Positions 5,464-59,741 of a DNA stretch of 64,000 nucleotides are shown here, one piece after another (position 1 is the first letter of the stretch; every line of letters starts with the position of its first letter). Source of the stretch: a virus (Duplodnaviria > Caudoviricetes). Location of the stretch: positions 706 to 64,705 of IMG/VR virus record IMGVR_UViG_3300037312_000542. One strand, 5' to 3'. A model generated the notes under the pieces. It searched no databases. It worked only from the letters and a program-made list of their open reading frames with translations, and was not told the DNA's origin. The position numbers and the translations under genes were made by a program.

Positions 5464-5694
5464 ATGACCCCCAACGCTGACTGGCTCCCGATTTCCACGG
5501 CGCCACGCGACGGCACCAAGGTCGAATTGACCGACGCCGCATGGGGCGAGGTATGGCCTATGCGATGGGAGGTTTTCAAGGGCGGCAATGGCGGCGTTTG
5601 GGCCATGTGGGGGTTTTCCGGTTCGCTGCTCGCGACGTGGCCGGAAGGCTCGCCGGGGGAAGGTGGGCCGACGCATTGGCGGGCCGCGGCATGA
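5464..5694 (+). CDS. DUF551-like hypothetical protein
   Basis: WLPISTAPRDGT start and PTHW end. Confidence 0.65.
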   Translation: MTPNADWLPISTAPRDGTKVELTDAAWGEVWPMRWEVFKGGNGGVWAMWGFSGSLLATWPEGSPGEGGPTHWRAAA

Positions 5695-6029
5695 CTGAAT
5701 TCCTAACTTTGGACGAGGCGGCGCTACTTGTTCCGGGCTTCGACGCGGACGCGCTCAAACGGCTATTCCGCAAGGACAAATTGACATGCTACAGACCAGG
5801 CAAACGTCTGCTCACTACGAAGGCCGACGTACTGGAGGCTGTCAAAGTCAAATGTCGCGTAGAGCCAAGGGGCCGCGCCTGTGGCTCCGTCCCGCCCGGC
5901 GCGATAATACGGGCGCAATCACCCACTTCGCAGTGTGGTTCGTCCTCGACGGACCTGTCCAGCGCAGCACTGGACTTGGTGTTGGCGCGACTGCCGACGA
6001 AAAAGAAAAAGCGCTCAACGCCTATCTGA
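5691..6029 (+). CDS. excisionase-like HTH protein
   Basis: FLTLDEAA...YRPGKRLLTTKAD (HTH_17-like); overlaps integrase start. Confidence 0.7.
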   Translation: MTEFLTLDEAALLVPGFDADALKRLFRKDKLTCYRPGKRLLTTKADVLEAVKVKCRVEPRGRACGSVPPGAIIRAQSPTSQCGSSSTDLSSAALDLVLARLPTKKKKRSTPI

Positions 6030-7051
6030 CTGAAAAACACACGGACGTTCGTCAGGCGGGGCTCAAAGACCCGACTAGTATCAAAATCGACGAGGTGTTG
6101 ATCCTCTATGGGGCGGAGCGTGTCCCGCTTCACAGTGACCCCGACAAGACCAAAAGCCGCATCCGTTTCCTGAAAGCGTTTTGGGACGGAAAGATGCTGT
6201 CGGACGTGACCGGCGCGTCGTGCCGCGCGTATGCGCGCACCCGACCCGCGCAGGCGGCACGACGAGAACTGGAAGACCTGCGCGCGGCCATCACATATCA
6301 TCGTCGGGAAGGGCTGCACGATCGCATCGTGTCCGTGGTGCTGCCCGAGAAATCGCCGCGGCGGGAACGTTGGCTAACCCGCAAGGAAGCCGCGCATCTA
6401 ATCCGTACCGCATGGCGCCACAAAAGCGCTCCGGCGGGCAACGGGACCGTCAGCCGCAATTGGCGGCATGTCGCCCGGTTCATGATTGTCGCGCGCTACA
6501 TGGGCAGCCGTGCCAGCGTGATCGCTAGTGCCAGTATCGAGCCGAAGCGGCCAGTTAAAGGCCCGTGGATCGATCTGGAAACCGGAATGTTCTACGGCGC
6601 CGGCATAGGTGAACGCGAGACCACGAAACGGAAGCAAAAGACGCCAATTCCCTTCGAACTTCTTGGTCATCTGCGACGCTGGCGAAAGAACGGTCAGCGG
6701 TTCGCGGTCGAGTGGCACGGCAAGCCCGTCCAGAGCGTCAAGAAAGGGCACGCGGAAGCCGTCGCAGCCGCCGAAGTTGAGGGGCCTCGCAGAAAACGGC
6801 CCATTGAGTTCGCTCCTGGCGTCACGCAACACACCTGGCGACATACGGTCGCGACGTGGCTGCTATCGGAAGGCGTCGACGTTGAGAAGGCCGGCGATTT
6901 TCTTGCCGTGGATCCTCGCACGCTGCGCCGCGTCTATGGGCATCACATCCCCGAACGGACGGCGGAGGTCCACGCCGCATTCCGTGCGCACCGCAAGCGC
7001 GTCGCCAAGCGCGTCGCCAAGCGCGTCGCCAAGCAATCATTGGCGATTTAA
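5852..7051 (+). CDS. int: tyrosine integrase
   Basis: HTWRH (HxxR), catalytic Tyr in VYGHH; adjacent to att core. Confidence 0.9.
   Translation: MSRRAKGPRLWLRPARRDNTGAITHFAVWFVLDGPVQRSTGLGVGATADEKEKALNAYLTEKHTDVRQAGLKDPTSIKIDEVLILYGAERVPLHSDPDKTKSRIRFLKAFWDGKMLSDVTGASCRAYARTRPAQAARRELEDLRAAITYHRREGLHDRIVSVVLPEKSPRRERWLTRKEAAHLIRTAWRHKSAPAGNGTVSRNWRHVARFMIVARYMGSRASVIASASIEPKRPVKGPWIDLETGMFYGAGIGERETTKRKQKTPIPFELLGHLRRWRKNGQRFAVEWHGKPVQSVKKGHAEAVAAAEVEGPRRKRPIEFAPGVTQHTWRHTVATWLLSEGVDVEKAGDFLAVDPRTLRRVYGHHIPERTAEVHAAFRAHRKRVAKRVAKRVAKQSLAI
6995..7034 (+). repeat. 3.3 tandem copies of 12-bp AAGCGCGTCGCC
   Basis: Seen directly; encodes RVAK repeats at the integrase C-terminus. Confidence 0.95.
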
Positions 7052-7094: not shown

Positions 7095-7143
7095 TGGTGG
7101 GCGGCTACGGATTCGAACCGCAGACCCTCTCGGTGTAAACGAG
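7095..7143 (-). mobile_element. attP core: 3' half of tRNA-Val(TAC)
   Basis: Reverse strand CTCG-TTTACAC-CGAG anticodon arm, TGCGG-TTCGAAT-CCGTA T arm, GCCGCCC-A-CCA end; no D arm or 5' acceptor strand upstream. Confidence 0.85.
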
Positions 7144-7408
7144 GGGGTTCGAAACCGCTTGATTGATTTTACTACCGTTTTCGATTGCTGTATGGGGCGG
7201 GTGTTGCCTCGCTGTTCTTGAATAGATTTGGCAAAGCATTGGCGGTGCGGATTTGTTCTGTTCCCCAATCGGAACAACTTTAACGATATGTTGCCCTTAC
7301 GTCACAACCCGCAGGTATTATAAGAAGTCCTGCGGATGTAACTTTTAACCGGCCACAAAACGGTCTTAATCGTTAACGGGGTAAAACGAAACGGGAAGGG
7401 TTATTCTA

Positions 7409-13869: not shown

Positions 13870-15074
13870 CGATAAACACTCCGATCGATGCGCCAGCCTT
13901 CGGTCGAGATTGATATCACTCCGGTTCCGTTTGCGTTGCTGTCGCCGGTCGAGACTTTGCCAGTGTTGCTTGTGAAAAGACGAGCACGAGTGGCGAAGAT
14001 GGTTCCCGGATTATAGAACCAATCACCCGTTGATGCTGATGGTGTGTATGGCCCTAGATCAGGATCCCGTATCGTGACGTTACCGCCAACAGTCCCGCTG
14101 AAGAACGCACTATCGTTGGCCTGTAGATAAACCTCGACTTCGCACTTTGCGCCAGGCGGGACTGCCAGAAGTCGCTCAGTCGCAGTTGTGGTGTTCGAGG
14201 CAGAAGAAACCGACGCCGGTCGCGACTTATAAAAGTGCCATTCCCCCAAAGCGACAAAGTCGTAAATATTATTGAAGTACGAGAATGCCCCGATCCAACG
14301 TCTCCGCGTAAATCCGGAGGGCATAACGGGCGCCGTCATCGACGTGCTGGTGAGAAAGTCAGATTCGCCTGTCGTCGGATTGAAGATCACATGGATGTGA
14401 TAAAATCCATTGGCGACGACACCAGCGTCGAGGCTCCCGCCATTCTGACCAGCAGACCACGCAAGCGTCACGTTCTTCGATAGTGTAGCCGAGATATCAA
14501 TCGTCACCTCGTTGAGGCTGTCGCGGCACGAGCCCGGTGCAACGTCAATTACGCGGTCGTAATACGTCGCGTTCTGGCTATACCCGAGCCCGCGAAAAAA
14601 GTCGGACACAGCGGTGAAGGAGTCATATGGGCTCTTTTTGAACACCCAGACTCCACCTTCCTTCTTCCACCACTTACCGGTCTCGTCCTGAAACGCTCGC
14701 TGGTTTTCGTCGCCTAATGAGGGGTCCGGAGCGGCCGCTCCATCCGGCACAGGGATGAAGTAATTGATCAGGTTGAGCGCAGCCACCTGCTTTTGCAGAT
14801 CTTGCGCGATCTGCACGTCGTCGAAGCGTAGCGAGGAACATTTGTACGCAACGTAGCTTTTGCCGCTGACCACACCGTCAGACCAACCCACCAACTGCCC
14901 ATGGGTCGCGTCCGTCACGGCGCTGACTAGCAGCGCGGGAGTGCCATCGACAGAAACCATGTCGCCATCGACGACGTTTGGCCCACCCCAGATGCCGCCG
15001 GATACGGTGACCCCCCCGTCTGTCGTTACAGCGACAGTGCCGGTTCGATACGCGGTTTCCTCCAGACTCGTCAT
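13866..15074 (-). CDS. tail fibre protein
   Basis: N-terminal YRTGTVAVT fibre anchor; position downstream of chaperone and tail tip. Confidence 0.7.
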   Translation of the reverse strand: MTSLEETAYRTGTVAVTTDGGVTVSGGIWGGPNVVDGDMVSVDGTPALLVSAVTDATHGQLVGWSDGVVSGKSYVAYKCSSLRFDDVQIAQDLQKQVAALNLINYFIPVPDGAAAPDPSLGDENQRAFQDETGKWWKKEGGVWVFKKSPYDSFTAVSDFFRGLGYSQNATYYDRVIDVAPGSCRDSLNEVTIDISATLSKNVTLAWSAGQNGGSLDAGVVANGFYHIHVIFNPTTGESDFLTSTSMTAPVMPSGFTRRRWIGAFSYFNNIYDFVALGEWHFYKSRPASVSSASNTTTATERLLAVPPGAKCEVEVYLQANDSAFFSGTVGGNVTIRDPDLGPYTPSASTGDWFYNPGTIFATRARLFTSNTGKVSTGDSNANGTGVISISTEGWRIDRSVYR

Positions 15075-39431: not shown

Positions 39432-39743
39432 TCAATACGGCGGCGGTGGCAGGGGCGGGGCTTGCAGCACTCGATAAACATACGTCCGTGACACTTCCAG
39501 CAATTCCGCGATGCGACCCGGCTTGACGCCGTTCGCGGCAAGCCCGCGAATCCGATAGGGCATGTCCGACGTCCTAGGACGGGCTTTGCGCGGGCGGTCC
39601 GGCCGCTCCGCGCGCAGGGTAGCGTAGACCGTGCCTACCGACACGCCAAGAGCGCGCGCGACCACTGCGGGGTCGGCGCTTGTCCTTTCAAGGGCGTCAT
39701 AAAACGCGACGATCTCGGCGCGGGTGGGTCGGGGGAGGGTCAA
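39432..39743 (-). CDS. double-HTH DNA-binding protein ending PPPPY
   Basis: VVARALGVSVGTVYATL and IAELLEVSRTYVYRVL. Confidence 0.7.
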   Translation of the reverse strand: MTLPRPTRAEIVAFYDALERTSADPAVVARALGVSVGTVYATLRAERPDRPRKARPRTSDMPYRIRGLAANGVKPGRIAELLEVSRTYVYRVLQAPPLPPPPY

Positions 39744-40009
39744 GTGCGCAACATCGCGAACAGGACTTTTCGCGTGATGCGTCCGGACCCGCAACACCAA
39801 TCGCAATGCCCGTTTTCATCTCGACCATTATCGGGGTGCGGGCATGGAACTAGCGATGCGACGCACGGGCCGACGGAATGCGCACCGCCCGGCTGTTTGC
39901 GGTTCCATATCTCTTCGCAAAGTTGCATGGTTCGACCGTAGCCGATTAATTCTCCGATTTGACGAACGGCGTTTTCTTCTTCGTCGTGGGTCATCTGCGT
40001 CAACTCCAT
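39740..40009 (-). CDS. hypothetical protein
   Basis: 89 aa, behind motif promoter. Confidence 0.6.
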   Translation of the reverse strand: MELTQMTHDEEENAVRQIGELIGYGRTMQLCEEIWNRKQPGGAHSVGPCVASLVPCPHPDNGRDENGHCDWCCGSGRITRKVLFAMLRT

Positions 40010-44905: not shown

Positions 44906-45499
44906 TCACGCGACCTGTTGTGTATGCGCCCTCGCCAGAATCGCCAGTGCCGCATTCGCCGCGCGCGTCTGCCCGATCGCGTCATTGAGCGCGACGTGCG
45001 GCGGCGGGACGGCGTATTCTTTGGGGTTGACGCCCGCCAAGTTGTAGAGTGTTCGGGTGCATTGAACGCGCCAGAACTGTTCGGTCCAAGGGCACGCGAT
45101 GCCCTTGAGAGTCGCGAATTGCGGGTCGGCACTTGTAGCCGCGCGTCGATACACTTCACCCAGGATCGGCGCATCGAATGTCGCCCCGTGACACCAGAGC
45201 AAGAAGTCGCCATCGGGCGCGGCCCATCGGATCCATTCGAGAAAGTAGGGCAGAGCGACGTTGAGCGGGGTAGGGTTCGTGGTCGCCGCAGCCCATGCGC
45301 CGGGGTGCTTCGCTTCCTGATCGTTCCACCACGCCATCGTTTCCGGGTCTTTCTCAAGGCCCAGCGCCTCTTGGTCGGGGATACTCAAATTGAGCGTGCA
45401 GTGCGCCTCGTCGGAGAAGCGGACGAATGCCGCGGCGAGTACAACGCCGCCGGGGCGCTTACAGATGGTTTCCAGATCGCACATGATGTGGGTGGTCAT
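44906..45499 (-). CDS. DEDDh 3'-5' exonuclease (DUF5051/Rv2179c-like)
   Basis: MCDLET, WCHGATFD, CTRT, HVALND. Confidence 0.85.
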   Translation of the reverse strand: MTTHIMCDLETICKRPGGVVLAAAFVRFSDEAHCTLNLSIPDQEALGLEKDPETMAWWNDQEAKHPGAWAAATTNPTPLNVALPYFLEWIRWAAPDGDFLLWCHGATFDAPILGEVYRRAATSADPQFATLKGIACPWTEQFWRVQCTRTLYNLAGVNPKEYAVPPPHVALNDAIGQTRAANAALAILARAHTQQVA

Positions 45500-45771
45500 A
45501 CGGCACGCTCCTGTAGTGAATGGAAGAAGTTGTATCCAGCGGGCGTGCATGAATAGCCACTGCCACGGATGGTTCCGTCGTCGATGTCGAACGCTGCGGT
45601 TCGTTCTGCGAAGCCTTTGCGGGCCAAGGCGCGAACAGCCAACCTAGCGACGCGATGCTCAAGGCCGGTAGATTCAACGATGCCTTTGAAAAAGAGCACG
45701 TTTCGTTCCGACTGATATCTGTCGGCAAGCGCGCGCAAAACCTGGCGTTGACGGTCGCTGATTGCGGTCAC
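45496..45771 (-). CDS. winged-helix-like hypothetical protein
   Basis: RQRQVLRAL...VARLAVRALARKGF...GSGY..TPAG. Confidence 0.55.
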   Translation of the reverse strand: MTAISDRQRQVLRALADRYQSERNVLFFKGIVESTGLEHRVARLAVRALARKGFAERTAAFDIDDGTIRGSGYSCTPAGYNFFHSLQERAV

Positions 45772-50415: not shown

Positions 50416-50447
50416 CTGCGTCGTCCTGTTCGCGTTTCGATATGACG

Positions 50448-50476
50448 ACTCTACTACGCCACAGCGGTTTGTCAAC
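50448..50476 (-). promoter_or_regulatory. motif promoter 16
   Basis: GTTGACAAAC...GTAG-TAGAGT. Confidence 0.75.
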
Positions 50477-50489
50477 GTGAAAAGTGACA

Positions 50490-50830
50490 AAAATTACAGG
50501 TTGAATCGACGCTGACCGACTGGACGTTTGGACGTTTGCCATTGGCTAATTGTTCCGGGAATAGTCTTTATTATTCAATGCGTTGGACTGCTAGAACACG
50601 AAATGACTCTTTTTCTATAGAAGTTTCTTAGTGGTAAGAGGGTCAATGTAAATAGTATTAACATTGTAACATATTGCAGTGCAAAAAGCCCGCTGGAAAG
50701 TATATATAGGGAATCACGCGTTCCAGACGTCCAAGCGTCCAACTCATTGATATTTCTAAACAATTACTGGAACACGAAATTACAGGTTGACCAATCAAAA
50801 GTAGCGAAATTATATGTTCTACAACCTAAA
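50490..50830. other. AT-rich non-coding region with direct and inverted repeats, candidate replication origin
   Basis: AAATTACAGGTTGA x2, GAACACGAAAT x2, TGGACG repeats in inverted orientation, CAATGT/ACATTG palindrome. Confidence 0.4.
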
Positions 50831-51036
50831 CTAGAACGTCAACTCGTAACCGCAGAGATCCAACCTCTAATTTGATCACGAATTGTTACAAAGCGGCTGA
50901 AAAAGTGAATGCACTTGCATTGAAATGGTGCGATGCGAAGACACTTTTTCACCACATTTGGTCCGCCCGTTTGTCAACTCGTAATAGCAGAAAAGCGACC
51001 TTGCACCACGACCGAAACGGACGCTACTTTCGCGCC

Positions 51037-51384
51037 ATGAAAAGCACAACCCTGGTCCTGATGACCCTTGCCGCCACGACGCCCGCTCTTGCCGCACCGC
51101 CGGCCGTGGCGCCCGAACACGCCCGCGTTGCCAGGGACGACGTCGCGCCCGAACACGCCCGCGCCTGCATTCTAAAGGCCGCTGATACGCTGCCGAAGAT
51201 TGCGGGGATGAAGATAGGCAAGAGCCGCACCGCACCTATCCCGCGCCCCGCGGGCTGGGCGAGCGCGGTGGATCCGATCCAGGTGGACATAGACTTTACC
51301 GCCGCGGGACAGCGGGATTCGTGGCGCTACGCTTGCTCAATCCTACCGGGCGGCTCGGCGATCGTGCAGCGGGTAGCGAAATAA
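51037..51384 (+). CDS. secreted moron protein with VAPEHAR repeat
   Basis: Sec signal MKSTTLVLMTLAATTPALAA; two Cys; opposite strand; terminator after. Confidence 0.6.
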   Translation: MKSTTLVLMTLAATTPALAAPPAVAPEHARVARDDVAPEHARACILKAADTLPKIAGMKIGKSRTAPIPRPAGWASAVDPIQVDIDFTAAGQRDSWRYACSILPGGSAIVQRVAK

Positions 51385-58073: not shown

Positions 58074-58102
58074 ACTTTACTACGTTTTGACGGTTTGTCA
58101 AC
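58074..58102 (-). promoter_or_regulatory. motif promoter 18 (MTase/primase operon)
   Basis: GTTGACAAAC...GTAG-TAAAGT. Confidence 0.75.
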
Positions 58103-58152: not shown

Positions 58153-58548
58153 TTACTTAGCGCGTTTCGGCAGCGGGGCGAGGTGAGGGCGCCATTCGAG
58201 GCCGTCCCGTTTCAACTCTTGCGACAGGCGCGTGTGCAACCCCAACTGCACATCGATGCCCATGGCACCAAGCCCGCGGACCGTCTCGGCGATCTCGCGC
58301 GCCTCTGAAATAGGCATATCAGGCCACTCGCCGATCTTGACGTGCATTCGGGTTTGAATGCCAGGGATCCGGTATTCGACGCTGAATGCGACTTGCCCTT
58401 CCGGATAGATGTTCAGGCGCAGCCCTGGTGCGAGCGGGTCGGACAGACGCTGTCGGACCTTCAGTTTCCGCGCGTCCTTCATCGACGCCTCGATCAGGCT
58501 GTCCGTTAGTTGCGTCTGCGCGGTAGCGGCGGGTTTCTTAGGACTCAT
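58153..58548 (-). CDS. stand-alone integrase arm-type DNA-binding domain protein (paralog 2)
   Basis: SD..APGLRL...FSVEYR...KIGEWPDMPISEARE...GIDV; no catalytic domain. Confidence 0.8.
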   Translation of the reverse strand: MSPKKPAATAQTQLTDSLIEASMKDARKLKVRQRLSDPLAPGLRLNIYPEGQVAFSVEYRIPGIQTRMHVKIGEWPDMPISEAREIAETVRGLGAMGIDVQLGLHTRLSQELKRDGLEWRPHLAPLPKRAK

Positions 58549-58964
58549 GGCTTCGGTGCCATCCCGCCGCGCCACATTATGCCGTCGCGTTTCAATTCTG
58601 CAATCAGCCGATCCATCAATCCATCCTGCACGTCCATGCCCTTTTCGCCAAGGTGCCGGATGACGCGTGCCAGTTCGCGCGCTTCGGTGATCGTCATGAC
58701 CGGATGCTTTCCGATCGTGATATGCGGGCGCCCGTCACGTCCCTGGACCTTGTATTCGACAATATACGCCCAATGACCACTCTTGAAAACATTGGCGCGG
58801 AGTCCCGGCTGAATGTCGTCGGACACAACGATTCGATTGTTCGCGATCTTCTCGCCGTATTTGCCCTTCGCCATGTCATCCACAATTTTCTGCAACGTAA
58901 TCACGTTGAACTTGGACGGCTTGGCTACGGTCGTAGTCTTGGGAATAGGGACCCGCTTACGCAT
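58545..58964 (-). CDS. stand-alone integrase arm-type DNA-binding domain protein (paralog 1)
   Basis: SD..QPGLRA...YIVEYK...TIGKHPVMTITEARE...GMDV; no catalytic domain. Confidence 0.8.
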   Translation of the reverse strand: MRKRVPIPKTTTVAKPSKFNVITLQKIVDDMAKGKYGEKIANNRIVVSDDIQPGLRANVFKSGHWAYIVEYKVQGRDGRPHITIGKHPVMTITEARELARVIRHLGEKGMDVQDGLMDRLIAELKRDGIMWRGGMAPKP

Positions 58965-59007
58965 TTTACTCGCCTCCTGTTATACCTTTTGCGTAGAATC
59001 AAGGACT

Positions 59008-59036
59008 TCCTTACTGCAAGCGTGTTGTTTGTCAAC
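59008..59036 (-). promoter_or_regulatory. motif promoter 19 (leftward, arm-domain genes)
   Basis: GTTGACAAAC...GCAG-TAAGGA. Confidence 0.7.
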
Positions 59037-59088
59037 GATTATTTTTGTTGAGGGCGGCGGGAACGAATTTGAGTGACGCTATTTCGTC

Positions 59089-59117
59089 GTTGACAAACGG
59101 TGAAACCGTAGTAAGGT
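59089..59117 (+). promoter_or_regulatory. motif promoter 20 (rightward, divergent from 19)
   Basis: GTTGACAAAC...GTAG-TAAGGT. Confidence 0.75.
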
Positions 59118-59153: not shown

Positions 59154-59741
59154 GTGACATTTACCGTGAAGATCGCACTGCAGCCCTTCGAAGTGGCATT
59201 CGAAGCGGGCTCCATCGCCGAAGCGGTTGCCATCCTGACCGAACCCGACAACGAACTGTCCAAACTGGCGGCACTCGCCAACGGCACCGCGATGGAAGAC
59301 GCCGCGGAGGACGAACCGGCCGCCACGGACGCGCCCAAGGCCAAGCGCGGTCGCAAGTCGAAGCAAACCGTGGAAGCGGTCGCACCGCCGCCGATGCCGG
59401 TTCCCGACGCCGCCCCGCCTGCACCCGCACCGGCTCCGGTCCCGGCCGAGACCGCGACGTTGGCACCGCCGCCACCCGTGGTTGCTGCCCCGCCGCCGCC
59501 AGCGCCCGTTGCACCGGCTCCGGTCGCCGCTACCCCGCCCGGCGTGCTCGCGCCCAAGGTCGTCGCCGAACTGAACCGGCGCAAGGAAGGGCAGCCGGAC
59601 AACGGCGCGGGCCTGATCGCGTGGCTCGCCGGCGCGGGGCTGGTCGTCCCGACCGCGACGTGGGACGAAGCGCTGCTCTGCATCCAGTTCCTCGACGACG
59701 CCAAGCTGGGTCCGGTCGCACAAGGTTTGCAAATCGCCTAA
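59154..59741 (+). CDS. Pro/Ala-rich hypothetical protein
   Basis: First rightward gene; central PAPAP low-complexity linker. Confidence 0.65.
   Translation: MTFTVKIALQPFEVAFEAGSIAEAVAILTEPDNELSKLAALANGTAMEDAAEDEPAATDAPKAKRGRKSKQTVEAVAPPPMPVPDAAPPAPAPAPVPAETATLAPPPPVVAAPPPPAPVAPAPVAATPPGVLAPKVVAELNRRKEGQPDNGAGLIAWLAGAGLVVPTATWDEALLCIQFLDDAKLGPVAQGLQIA

Follow-up and report, generated by a model that had tools for sequence, protein, structure and literature searches.

ArmA and ArmB, two proteins encoded side by side at the divergent junction of a phage genome, represent a known domain, the arm-type DNA-binding domain of tyrosine integrases, in a previously uncharacterised, stand-alone, and predicted dimerising family at a conserved control position. 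Their function is best explained as that of a dimeric sequence-specific regulator of phage transcription, of either sign, a reading on which our judgement is evenly balanced. We infer DNA binding by the Arm proteins, their target sites, and the sign of the regulation.

The window analysed here, the whole stretch of 64,000 nt, spans a virus record of 64,705 bp except for 705 bases. The two ends of the record (1–278 and 64428–64705) overlap by 278 bp with two mismatches, and the genome is therefore complete. The source classes the record as linear despite this overlap, which is either a terminal repeat or arose when a circular genome was assembled from a population with slight polymorphism. The host group of the phage is soil alphaproteobacteria (Nitrobacteraceae and related soil bacteria), and the clade is uncultured. 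Minus-strand genes run leftward from around 59,000 down to around 7,900. Plus-strand genes run rightward from 59,139 and continue, across the junction of the record's two ends, to around 7,900.

Arm Genes, Domain, and Fold

ArmA (58545–58964, minus strand; 139 aa) is composed of an N-terminal basic tail and helix, the Arm-DNA-bind_3 domain, and a C-terminal helix predicted to mediate pairing. The sequence AGGAGG stands 8 nt upstream of its ATG. ArmB (58153–58548, minus strand; 131 aa) is a paralog of ArmA and begins with MSPKK. Its ATG at 58548 overlaps the stop codon of ArmA as ATGA, corresponding to translational coupling. This start is the best choice for ArmB and is the same in close relatives. 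ArmA and ArmB are 42% identical over 131 residues (E = 1e-31), including the shared C-terminal tail. The initial annotation had described two coupled paralogs with a common tail here, and this description holds.

Both proteins match Pfam PF13356 (Arm-DNA-bind_3) above its curated gathering cut-off of 27 bits: ArmA with 32.6 bits and ArmB with 42.7 bits. The arm-type assignment, originally made from sequence motifs, thus passed the HMM check. In a six-frame scan of the whole genome, PF13356 matches only ArmA and ArmB (33.1 and 43.1 bits). The catalytic domain of tyrosine integrases (PF00589) has no match at the Arm locus. As had been noticed earlier, the two proteins contain no catalytic domain, because they end at 131–139 aa.

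The single-chain fold was predicted with AF2 for ArmB, with a pLDDT of 76.5 overall and around 90 within the domain. The model consists of a helix, four strands, and two helices, with the strands at residues 33–75 and a helix at residues 80–95. This is the beta-sheet plus helix fold of solved arm domains. The best three Foldseek matches of the model are 3ju0, 3jtz, and 3rmp_C, all of them arm domains of the HAI7 and HPI P4-like integrases (probability 1.00, 28–30% identity, rmsd 2.6–2.8 Å). The Arm family profile also finds the solved arm domains by sequence (E = 2e-7). ArmB, as modelled, carries the arm fold of P4-like integrases.

A Stand-Alone Family of Arm Proteins

The search with the Arm profile covered 1.8 billion representatives and returned 729 matches, 80 of them at E ≤ 1e-10. 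The strong matches are almost all 100–190 aa long and are aligned through the C-terminal tail. Many of them stop just past the conserved Trp of the tail. Full-length integrases match the profile weakly, over the arm part only. The strong, short matches that include the tail therefore constitute a distinct stand-alone family. The family corresponds to phrog_3423, which is of unknown function in PHROGs, and NCBIfam contains no family for ArmA or ArmB. No paper on stand-alone arm proteins was found in the literature on arm-type binding domains and P4-like integrases.

Among isolated phages, no stand-alone Arm homolog was detected by tblastn: ArmA matches nothing, and the sole matches of ArmB (27%) are N-termini of integrases from Campylobacter CJIE4-type phages. 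Relatives of the nuclease gene among isolated phages are at most 29% identical, so the phage has no annotated close relative among them. On plasmids, Arm matches are integrase N-termini only. Plasmid matches seemingly extending into the Arm tail were rejected as a weak gapped alignment. A scan of IMG/VR with a single Arm protein gave no match. The protein library also contains five large proteins (P0060, P0063, P0094, P0117, and P0120; 670–1612 aa) that contain between 3 and 13 copies of an arm-domain-like stretch, and P0060 looks like an integrase with three tandem N-terminal arm domains.

Predicted Pairing of ArmA and ArmB

Complex prediction for ArmA and ArmB with both family alignments gave a score of 0.63 (0.64, 0.63, and 0.59 in the three runs), against 0.00 for the best of three controls. 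Solved complexes reach the mark applied to this score in 58 of 80 cases, and mismatched pairs do so in 2 of 110. At least 80% of the contacts are common to the three runs, and the partner pLDDT is 80. The predicted interface lies between residues 94–135 of ArmA and residues 85–121 of ArmB, that is, in the last domain helix and the family-specific tail. According to this model, ArmA and ArmB would pair via their family-specific C-terminal helices, which makes the tail the likely dimerisation element, probably serving homodimers in the phages with a single copy. For paralogs, the model does not tell a heterodimer interface from a homodimer interface.

The idea of an ArmA–ArmB heterodimer had been raised in the initial annotation. 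It gains support from the complex model and from P0009, an ORF of 257 aa in the protein library in which an A-type unit and a B-type unit are fused; this is a single case and may be an assembly artefact.

Conservation of the Arm Locus

The first gene at the divergent junction is an Arm gene in every relative examined. The tandem pair of ArmA and ArmB is located at the same junction in L004, L005, L006, L007, and L009, and the identity of ArmA is 91–94% in L004, L006, and L009. In L011, L013, L015, and L016, a single Arm gene is seen at the junction, and its product is around 40% identical to those of the window. The Arm gene is upstream of methyltransferases and PrimPol-VapE in every locus examined.

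The divergent partner gene (59154–59741, plus strand) encodes a protein of 195 aa with a small N-terminal domain, an AT-hook-like KRGRK sequence, a Pro/Ala-rich linker, and a C-terminal domain. It has no family match. The partner gene stands opposite the Arm gene in L004–L007, L009, L011, L013, L015, and L016, where the proteins are 195–276 aa long. Most homologs of the partner protein (seen in L006, L009, L011, and L016) contain the motif IPPFLDR or VPAFLDR, resembling the conserved C-terminal peptide of FtsZ. The motif is missing from the partner proteins of the window and L004. The partner may be an early protein directed at host cell division or binding to DNA.

Promoters and the Switch Region

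The 10-mer GTTGACAAAC is present in 23 exact copies, compared with 4.1 expected, and none of 100 shuffles reached 23. It is followed, 9–10 nt downstream, by GTAGTA and a −10 hexamer, TAnnGT. The sigma70-like TTGACA-N16/17-TAnnRT sites carry the G...AAC extension in 19 of 19 cases in the window. Only one divergent pair of motif copies exists, at 59027 (minus strand) and 59089 (plus strand), and the gene orientation flips between these two copies. Both the motif and the unique divergent pair at the change of direction had been pointed out before and were reproduced.

The leftward copy, P_arm (59008–59036, minus strand), has its −35 box TTGACA at 59030–59035 and a deviant −10 box, TAAGGA, at 59008–59013. 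This −10 box is preceded by GCAG, not GTAG, and GCAG is also seen in three of four relatives. The −10 box of P_arm in relatives is TAAAGC, and the final T is missing in all four close relatives. The rightward copy, P_R (59089–59117, plus strand), is a consensus promoter with the −35 box at 59090–59095 and the −10 box TAAGGT at 59112–59117. The next leftward copy (58074–58102, minus strand) is located 51 nt past the stop codon of ArmB and heads an operon encoding small PPPY proteins, methyltransferases, and PrimPol-VapE. A search of the stretch from ArmB to this promoter for an intrinsic terminator found none.

The two −35 boxes of the divergent pair are separated by a 52-bp spacer, in which no repeated or conserved operator was found. 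Within the intergenic alignment, conservation is lowest in this spacer. Two weak items, an ACGAA/TTCGT dyad and the word CGAAAW, which recurs, were considered as operators and dropped, as they are not conserved among close relatives. The candidate operators left are the boxes embedded in the promoters themselves. The alphaproteobacterial LexA-box pattern has 3 matches against 3.2 expected, which is the chance level.

Promoter copies near the switch (58093, 59089, 59758, and 62590, and the early promoters of L004, L006, and L009) often contain a second (G/C)AAAC, around 10 nt after the first one and directly before GTAG. Many promoter copies of L006 and L009 contain ACTAC-N6-GTAGT dyads in place of the second (G/C)AAAC. 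The promoter motif may have sub-classes.

L004, L006, and L009 share the exact promoter motif of the window, including GTAGTAA. Four distant lineages, with Arm proteins around 40% identical to those of the window, have each their own extension after GTTGACA: ATAC, TTTGG, ATCnGCA, or WTTCG. In L006, PrimPol-VapE (35%), SSB (49%), and the nuclease (DUF2800, 54%) are as diverged as those of distant phages. Despite these diverged replication genes, ArmA of L006 is still 91% identical, and the promoter motif of L006 is the same as in the window. The conservation of ArmA and the motif across mosaic relatives, with other extensions in distant lineages, indicates that a single regulatory module, made up of the Arm locus, the AT-hook protein, and the promoter extension, is inherited as a unit. 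Among the relatives with a single Arm gene, the symmetry of the promoter boxes differs: it is inverted in L011 and direct in L013.

Temperate Lifestyle and Search for Repressors

The window encodes a tyrosine integrase (5852–7051, plus strand; 399 aa) that belongs to phrog_1 (E = 1.2e-18) and has more than 2,500 homologs, many of which are named integrase. Its AF2 model (pLDDT 83.6) contains N-terminal strands (residues 9–39) and a helix (residues 48–64) of its own. Directly after the integrase gene is the candidate attP core (7097–7150, minus strand), the 3′ part of a tRNA-like sequence including the T-arm, the acceptor stem, and CCA. ATTGGCG(G) repeats at 7039, 7051, and 7238 are candidate arm-type sites. 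The integrase, the tRNA-like sequence, and the flanking repeats together form a candidate for the classical attP layout. ARAGORN found no full tRNA at this site, and the remnant of the anticodon loop reads TAC. The 3′ end of the integrase gene (6994–7034) contains a perfect 12-nt tandem repeat of 3.4 copies, encoding a KRVA repeat in the C-terminal tail. An ORF overlapping the start of the integrase gene in another frame (5691–6029, plus strand) shows a weak match to HTH_17 (excisionase/AlpA-like; 12.6 bits) and is a possible Xis.

A 139-aa homolog of ArmA, 93.5% identical, is found in the same neighbourhood inside a 4.97-Mb Nitrobacteraceae chromosome (the L009/L010 prophage). Host genes follow the integrase of this prophage. 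Its end was once placed at tRNA-Gly, a placement rejected in favour of a tRNA-3′-like fragment around 900 bp nearer the integrase. Further relatives are present in the chromosome of Bradyrhizobium oligotrophicum and in a Rhodoplanes MAG. Based on the integrase, the attP layout, and the chromosomal relatives, this phage group is therefore temperate.

The complete genome (64,705 bp), read in all frames, matches neither HTH_3 nor Peptidase_S24, the domains of CI and Cro, and around 30 small ORFs were scanned singly for Pfam domains. The initial annotation had seen no classical cI/Cro repressor in the window and recommended looking beyond it; the complete genome contains no conventional cI either. 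Its statement stands for these two domains, but three other weak HTH candidates exist: a double HTH at 39432–39806, close to the genes for packaging, a LexA-like winged helix below the threshold at 45496–45771, and the weak HTH_17 match just upstream of int.

Alternative Functions of the Arm Proteins

It is practically inconceivable that the Arm genes are non-functional remnants of truncated integrase genes. Many short proteins in databases are named Arm DNA-binding domain-containing, and some of them are probably fragments. Against three relatives, however, dN/dS is 0.03–0.04 for ArmA and 0.06–0.16 for ArmB, both at dS values above 1 and near saturation. The starts, the ribosome-binding site, and the coupling are intact, the family-specific C-terminal tail is conserved in around 80 clusters, and the synteny is conserved. 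By these sequence comparisons, ArmA is under very strong purifying selection, and ArmA and ArmB are to be regarded as functional, not as integrase debris. The initial annotation had also suggested a recombination directionality factor. Free arm domains would then bind the arm-type sites of Int, shaping attP or steering integration versus excision, just as the same domain reads arm sites in P4-like integrases, and this phage does have an integrase and a repeat-flanked candidate attP. The comparison with the L009/L010 prophage speaks against this proposal: the integrase that accompanies the ArmA homolog there is unrelated (BLASTP E = 15), and the tRNA-like att fragment (near 14,650–14,700 in L010) differs as well. 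Besides, the Arm genes are not adjacent to int but more than 50 kb away in window coordinates, or around 12 kb round the circle, and the ATTGGCGG repeats of attP are absent from the switch region. The excisionase-like HTH_17 stretch lies just upstream of int, and the Int of the window has its own N-terminal sheet-plus-helix domain. Neither linkage nor co-variation of the Arm genes with a cognate integrase and att was found. Since the integrase and att were swapped while ArmA was conserved, and since Int has its own domain, a dedicated excision or arm-site partner is extremely unlikely.

Another possible role is that of an origin-recognition partner of PrimPol-VapE, in which Arm, bound to iterons, would load the replicase that its operon encodes further downstream. 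PrimPol-VapE is always encoded downstream of the Arm gene, as its immediate neighbour in L015; short direct repeats are what arm domains recognise, and three CACATCACAC repeats are seen in the divergent spacer of L013. The divergent spacer of the window, however, contains no iterons. Iterons are instead found in an AT-rich (36–42% GC) non-coding block at 50416–51036, in which two tandem TTGGACGY 8-mers on each side, inverted, surround a conserved centre (TGTTACAATGT...TTTACAT), accompanied by repeated TCAACCTGTAATTT words. Counterparts of the block are present in L006, L009, and L013. Among the window, L006, and L009, the iterons differ although ArmA is 91–94% identical. The iterons of L013 resemble those of the window and its primase is the closest (64%), but its Arm is only around 43–46% identical. 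The iterons thus follow the primase, not Arm, in all four genomes, which makes this role very unlikely. Because the iterons differ and track the similarity of PrimPol-VapE, the block is likely a replication origin; it is intact inside the L009 prophage and thus is not attP. A third alternative is a DNA binder aimed beyond the promoters of the phage itself. It might block the arm sites bound by P4-like integrases from satellites or islands in the host, or act as a host-directed or nucleoid-type early protein. The early position of the genes, the extreme conservation of ArmA, which fits a fixed outside target, and the lack of an operator in the switch region of the phage agree with such a role. 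We nonetheless consider it rather doubtful, as the deep conservation of position and the co-inheritance with the promoter motif fit regulation in cis better.

Beside the origin-like block is a gene on the opposite strand (51037–51384, plus strand), whose 115-aa product matches no family and has an N-terminus resembling a signal peptide. From these two features, it may be a moron or lysogenic-conversion gene.

Regulation by the Arm Proteins

The reading of ArmA and ArmB as a transcriptional regulator draws on the domain, the fold, the selection, the synteny, the temperate lifestyle, and the co-inheritance of Arm with the promoter extension. In this reading, an integrase arm domain was domesticated, duplicated, and joined to a family-specific C-terminal helix. 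ArmA and ArmB would pair through this helix, and the dimer would possess two non-identical beta-sheet DNA readers. It would regulate transcription at the divergent early region and most likely act also on the phage-specific extensions of every promoter copy. The favoured sub-mechanism is prophage or global repression, in which the dimer would occupy the −35-proximal and −10-proximal boxes and P_arm would escape via its altered −10-proximal box. Relatives with a single copy would use homodimers.

Among the regulatory roles, that of a lysogeny repressor is tentatively proposed. The temperate lifestyle without a CI-like protein favours repression, as do the approximately 22 near-identical, strong-looking promoters that have to be silenced in a lysogen. 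The lack of the final T in the −10 box of P_arm and the change from GTAG to GCAG are as expected of a promoter that must stay on. A more specific version, in which the heterodimer is an immunity repressor and each half reads one of two boxes in every one of the approximately 22 promoters, is unlikely. An early lytic regulator, either Cro-like or an activator, is likewise an improbable though conceivable role.

Several facts speak against the repressor. No operator was found in the spacer, and the symmetry of the promoter boxes differs among relatives with a single Arm gene. Both divergent operons carry lytic replication functions. As no terminator follows ArmB, transcripts from P_arm may extend into the methylase and primase genes, an unusual arrangement for a maintenance repressor. 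The co-inheritance does not separate Arm from the equally conserved AT-hook protein, and it also fits a simple descent of the promoter copies. There are also dozens of unannotated small ORFs, any of which could encode a novel repressor. The real regulator could be the AT-hook protein or one of these ORFs instead.

Comparison with Known Systems

The closest known relatives are the arm domains of P4-like integrases (HPI and HAI7; PDB 3JTZ, 3JU0, and 3RMP; PF13356), which are homologous to Arm in sequence and share its fold. The Arm proteins differ from these integrases in lacking the core-binding and catalytic domains; instead, they have a C-terminal helix ending in a W-R-P-type motif. The Arm genes are also far from int and attP and do not co-vary with either.

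The location resembles that of the lambda-type CI/Cro switch, in that a gene for a small putative DNA-binding protein is found at divergent early promoters of a temperate phage and its own promoter, here P_arm, is weaker than the others. In contrast to CI and Cro, Arm has neither an HTH nor an S24 autocleavage domain, no operators are defined, and the Arm gene is co-oriented with replication genes with no terminator after it.

Cox of P2 and Apl of phage 186 are small helix-turn-helix or winged-helix proteins that serve as both excisionase and switch repressor, and they act at att too. They are a precedent for recombination-type DNA binders that work as transcriptional switch proteins in temperate phages. 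Arm differs from them by its beta-sheet fold, and a link to att was tested and not found.

AlpA-type regulators are small, HTH_17/MerR-like proteins whose genes precede those of primases in P4-like satellites and PICIs. The Arm gene is similar in that it encodes a small putative DNA-binding protein and directly precedes a primase-helicase operon, again within an integrative element. Arm is, however, an arm domain and not HTH_17/MerR-like, and no co-variation was seen between the Arm locus and the primase.

To our knowledge, arm-type domains are otherwise known solely as accessory DNA readers of integrases. Here, the arm domain has become an independent, predicted dimerising family at a fixed place of early control, and its genes are among the most conserved of the region. 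The idea of a switch regulator is testable because the host group includes cultured Bradyrhizobium. If Arm is truly a switch regulator, the few known types of phage repressor would be joined by one with a new fold, and Arm would explain how approximately 22 near-identical strong promoters are silenced without a CI-like protein. If the heterodimer is truly an immunity repressor, it would represent a new structural class of phage repressor, together with a promoter-embedded global operator scheme, in which the whole genome is shut off directly by one pair of proteins. The tandem duplication, from homodimer to heterodimer, would also be a clean natural case of the evolution of operator asymmetry.
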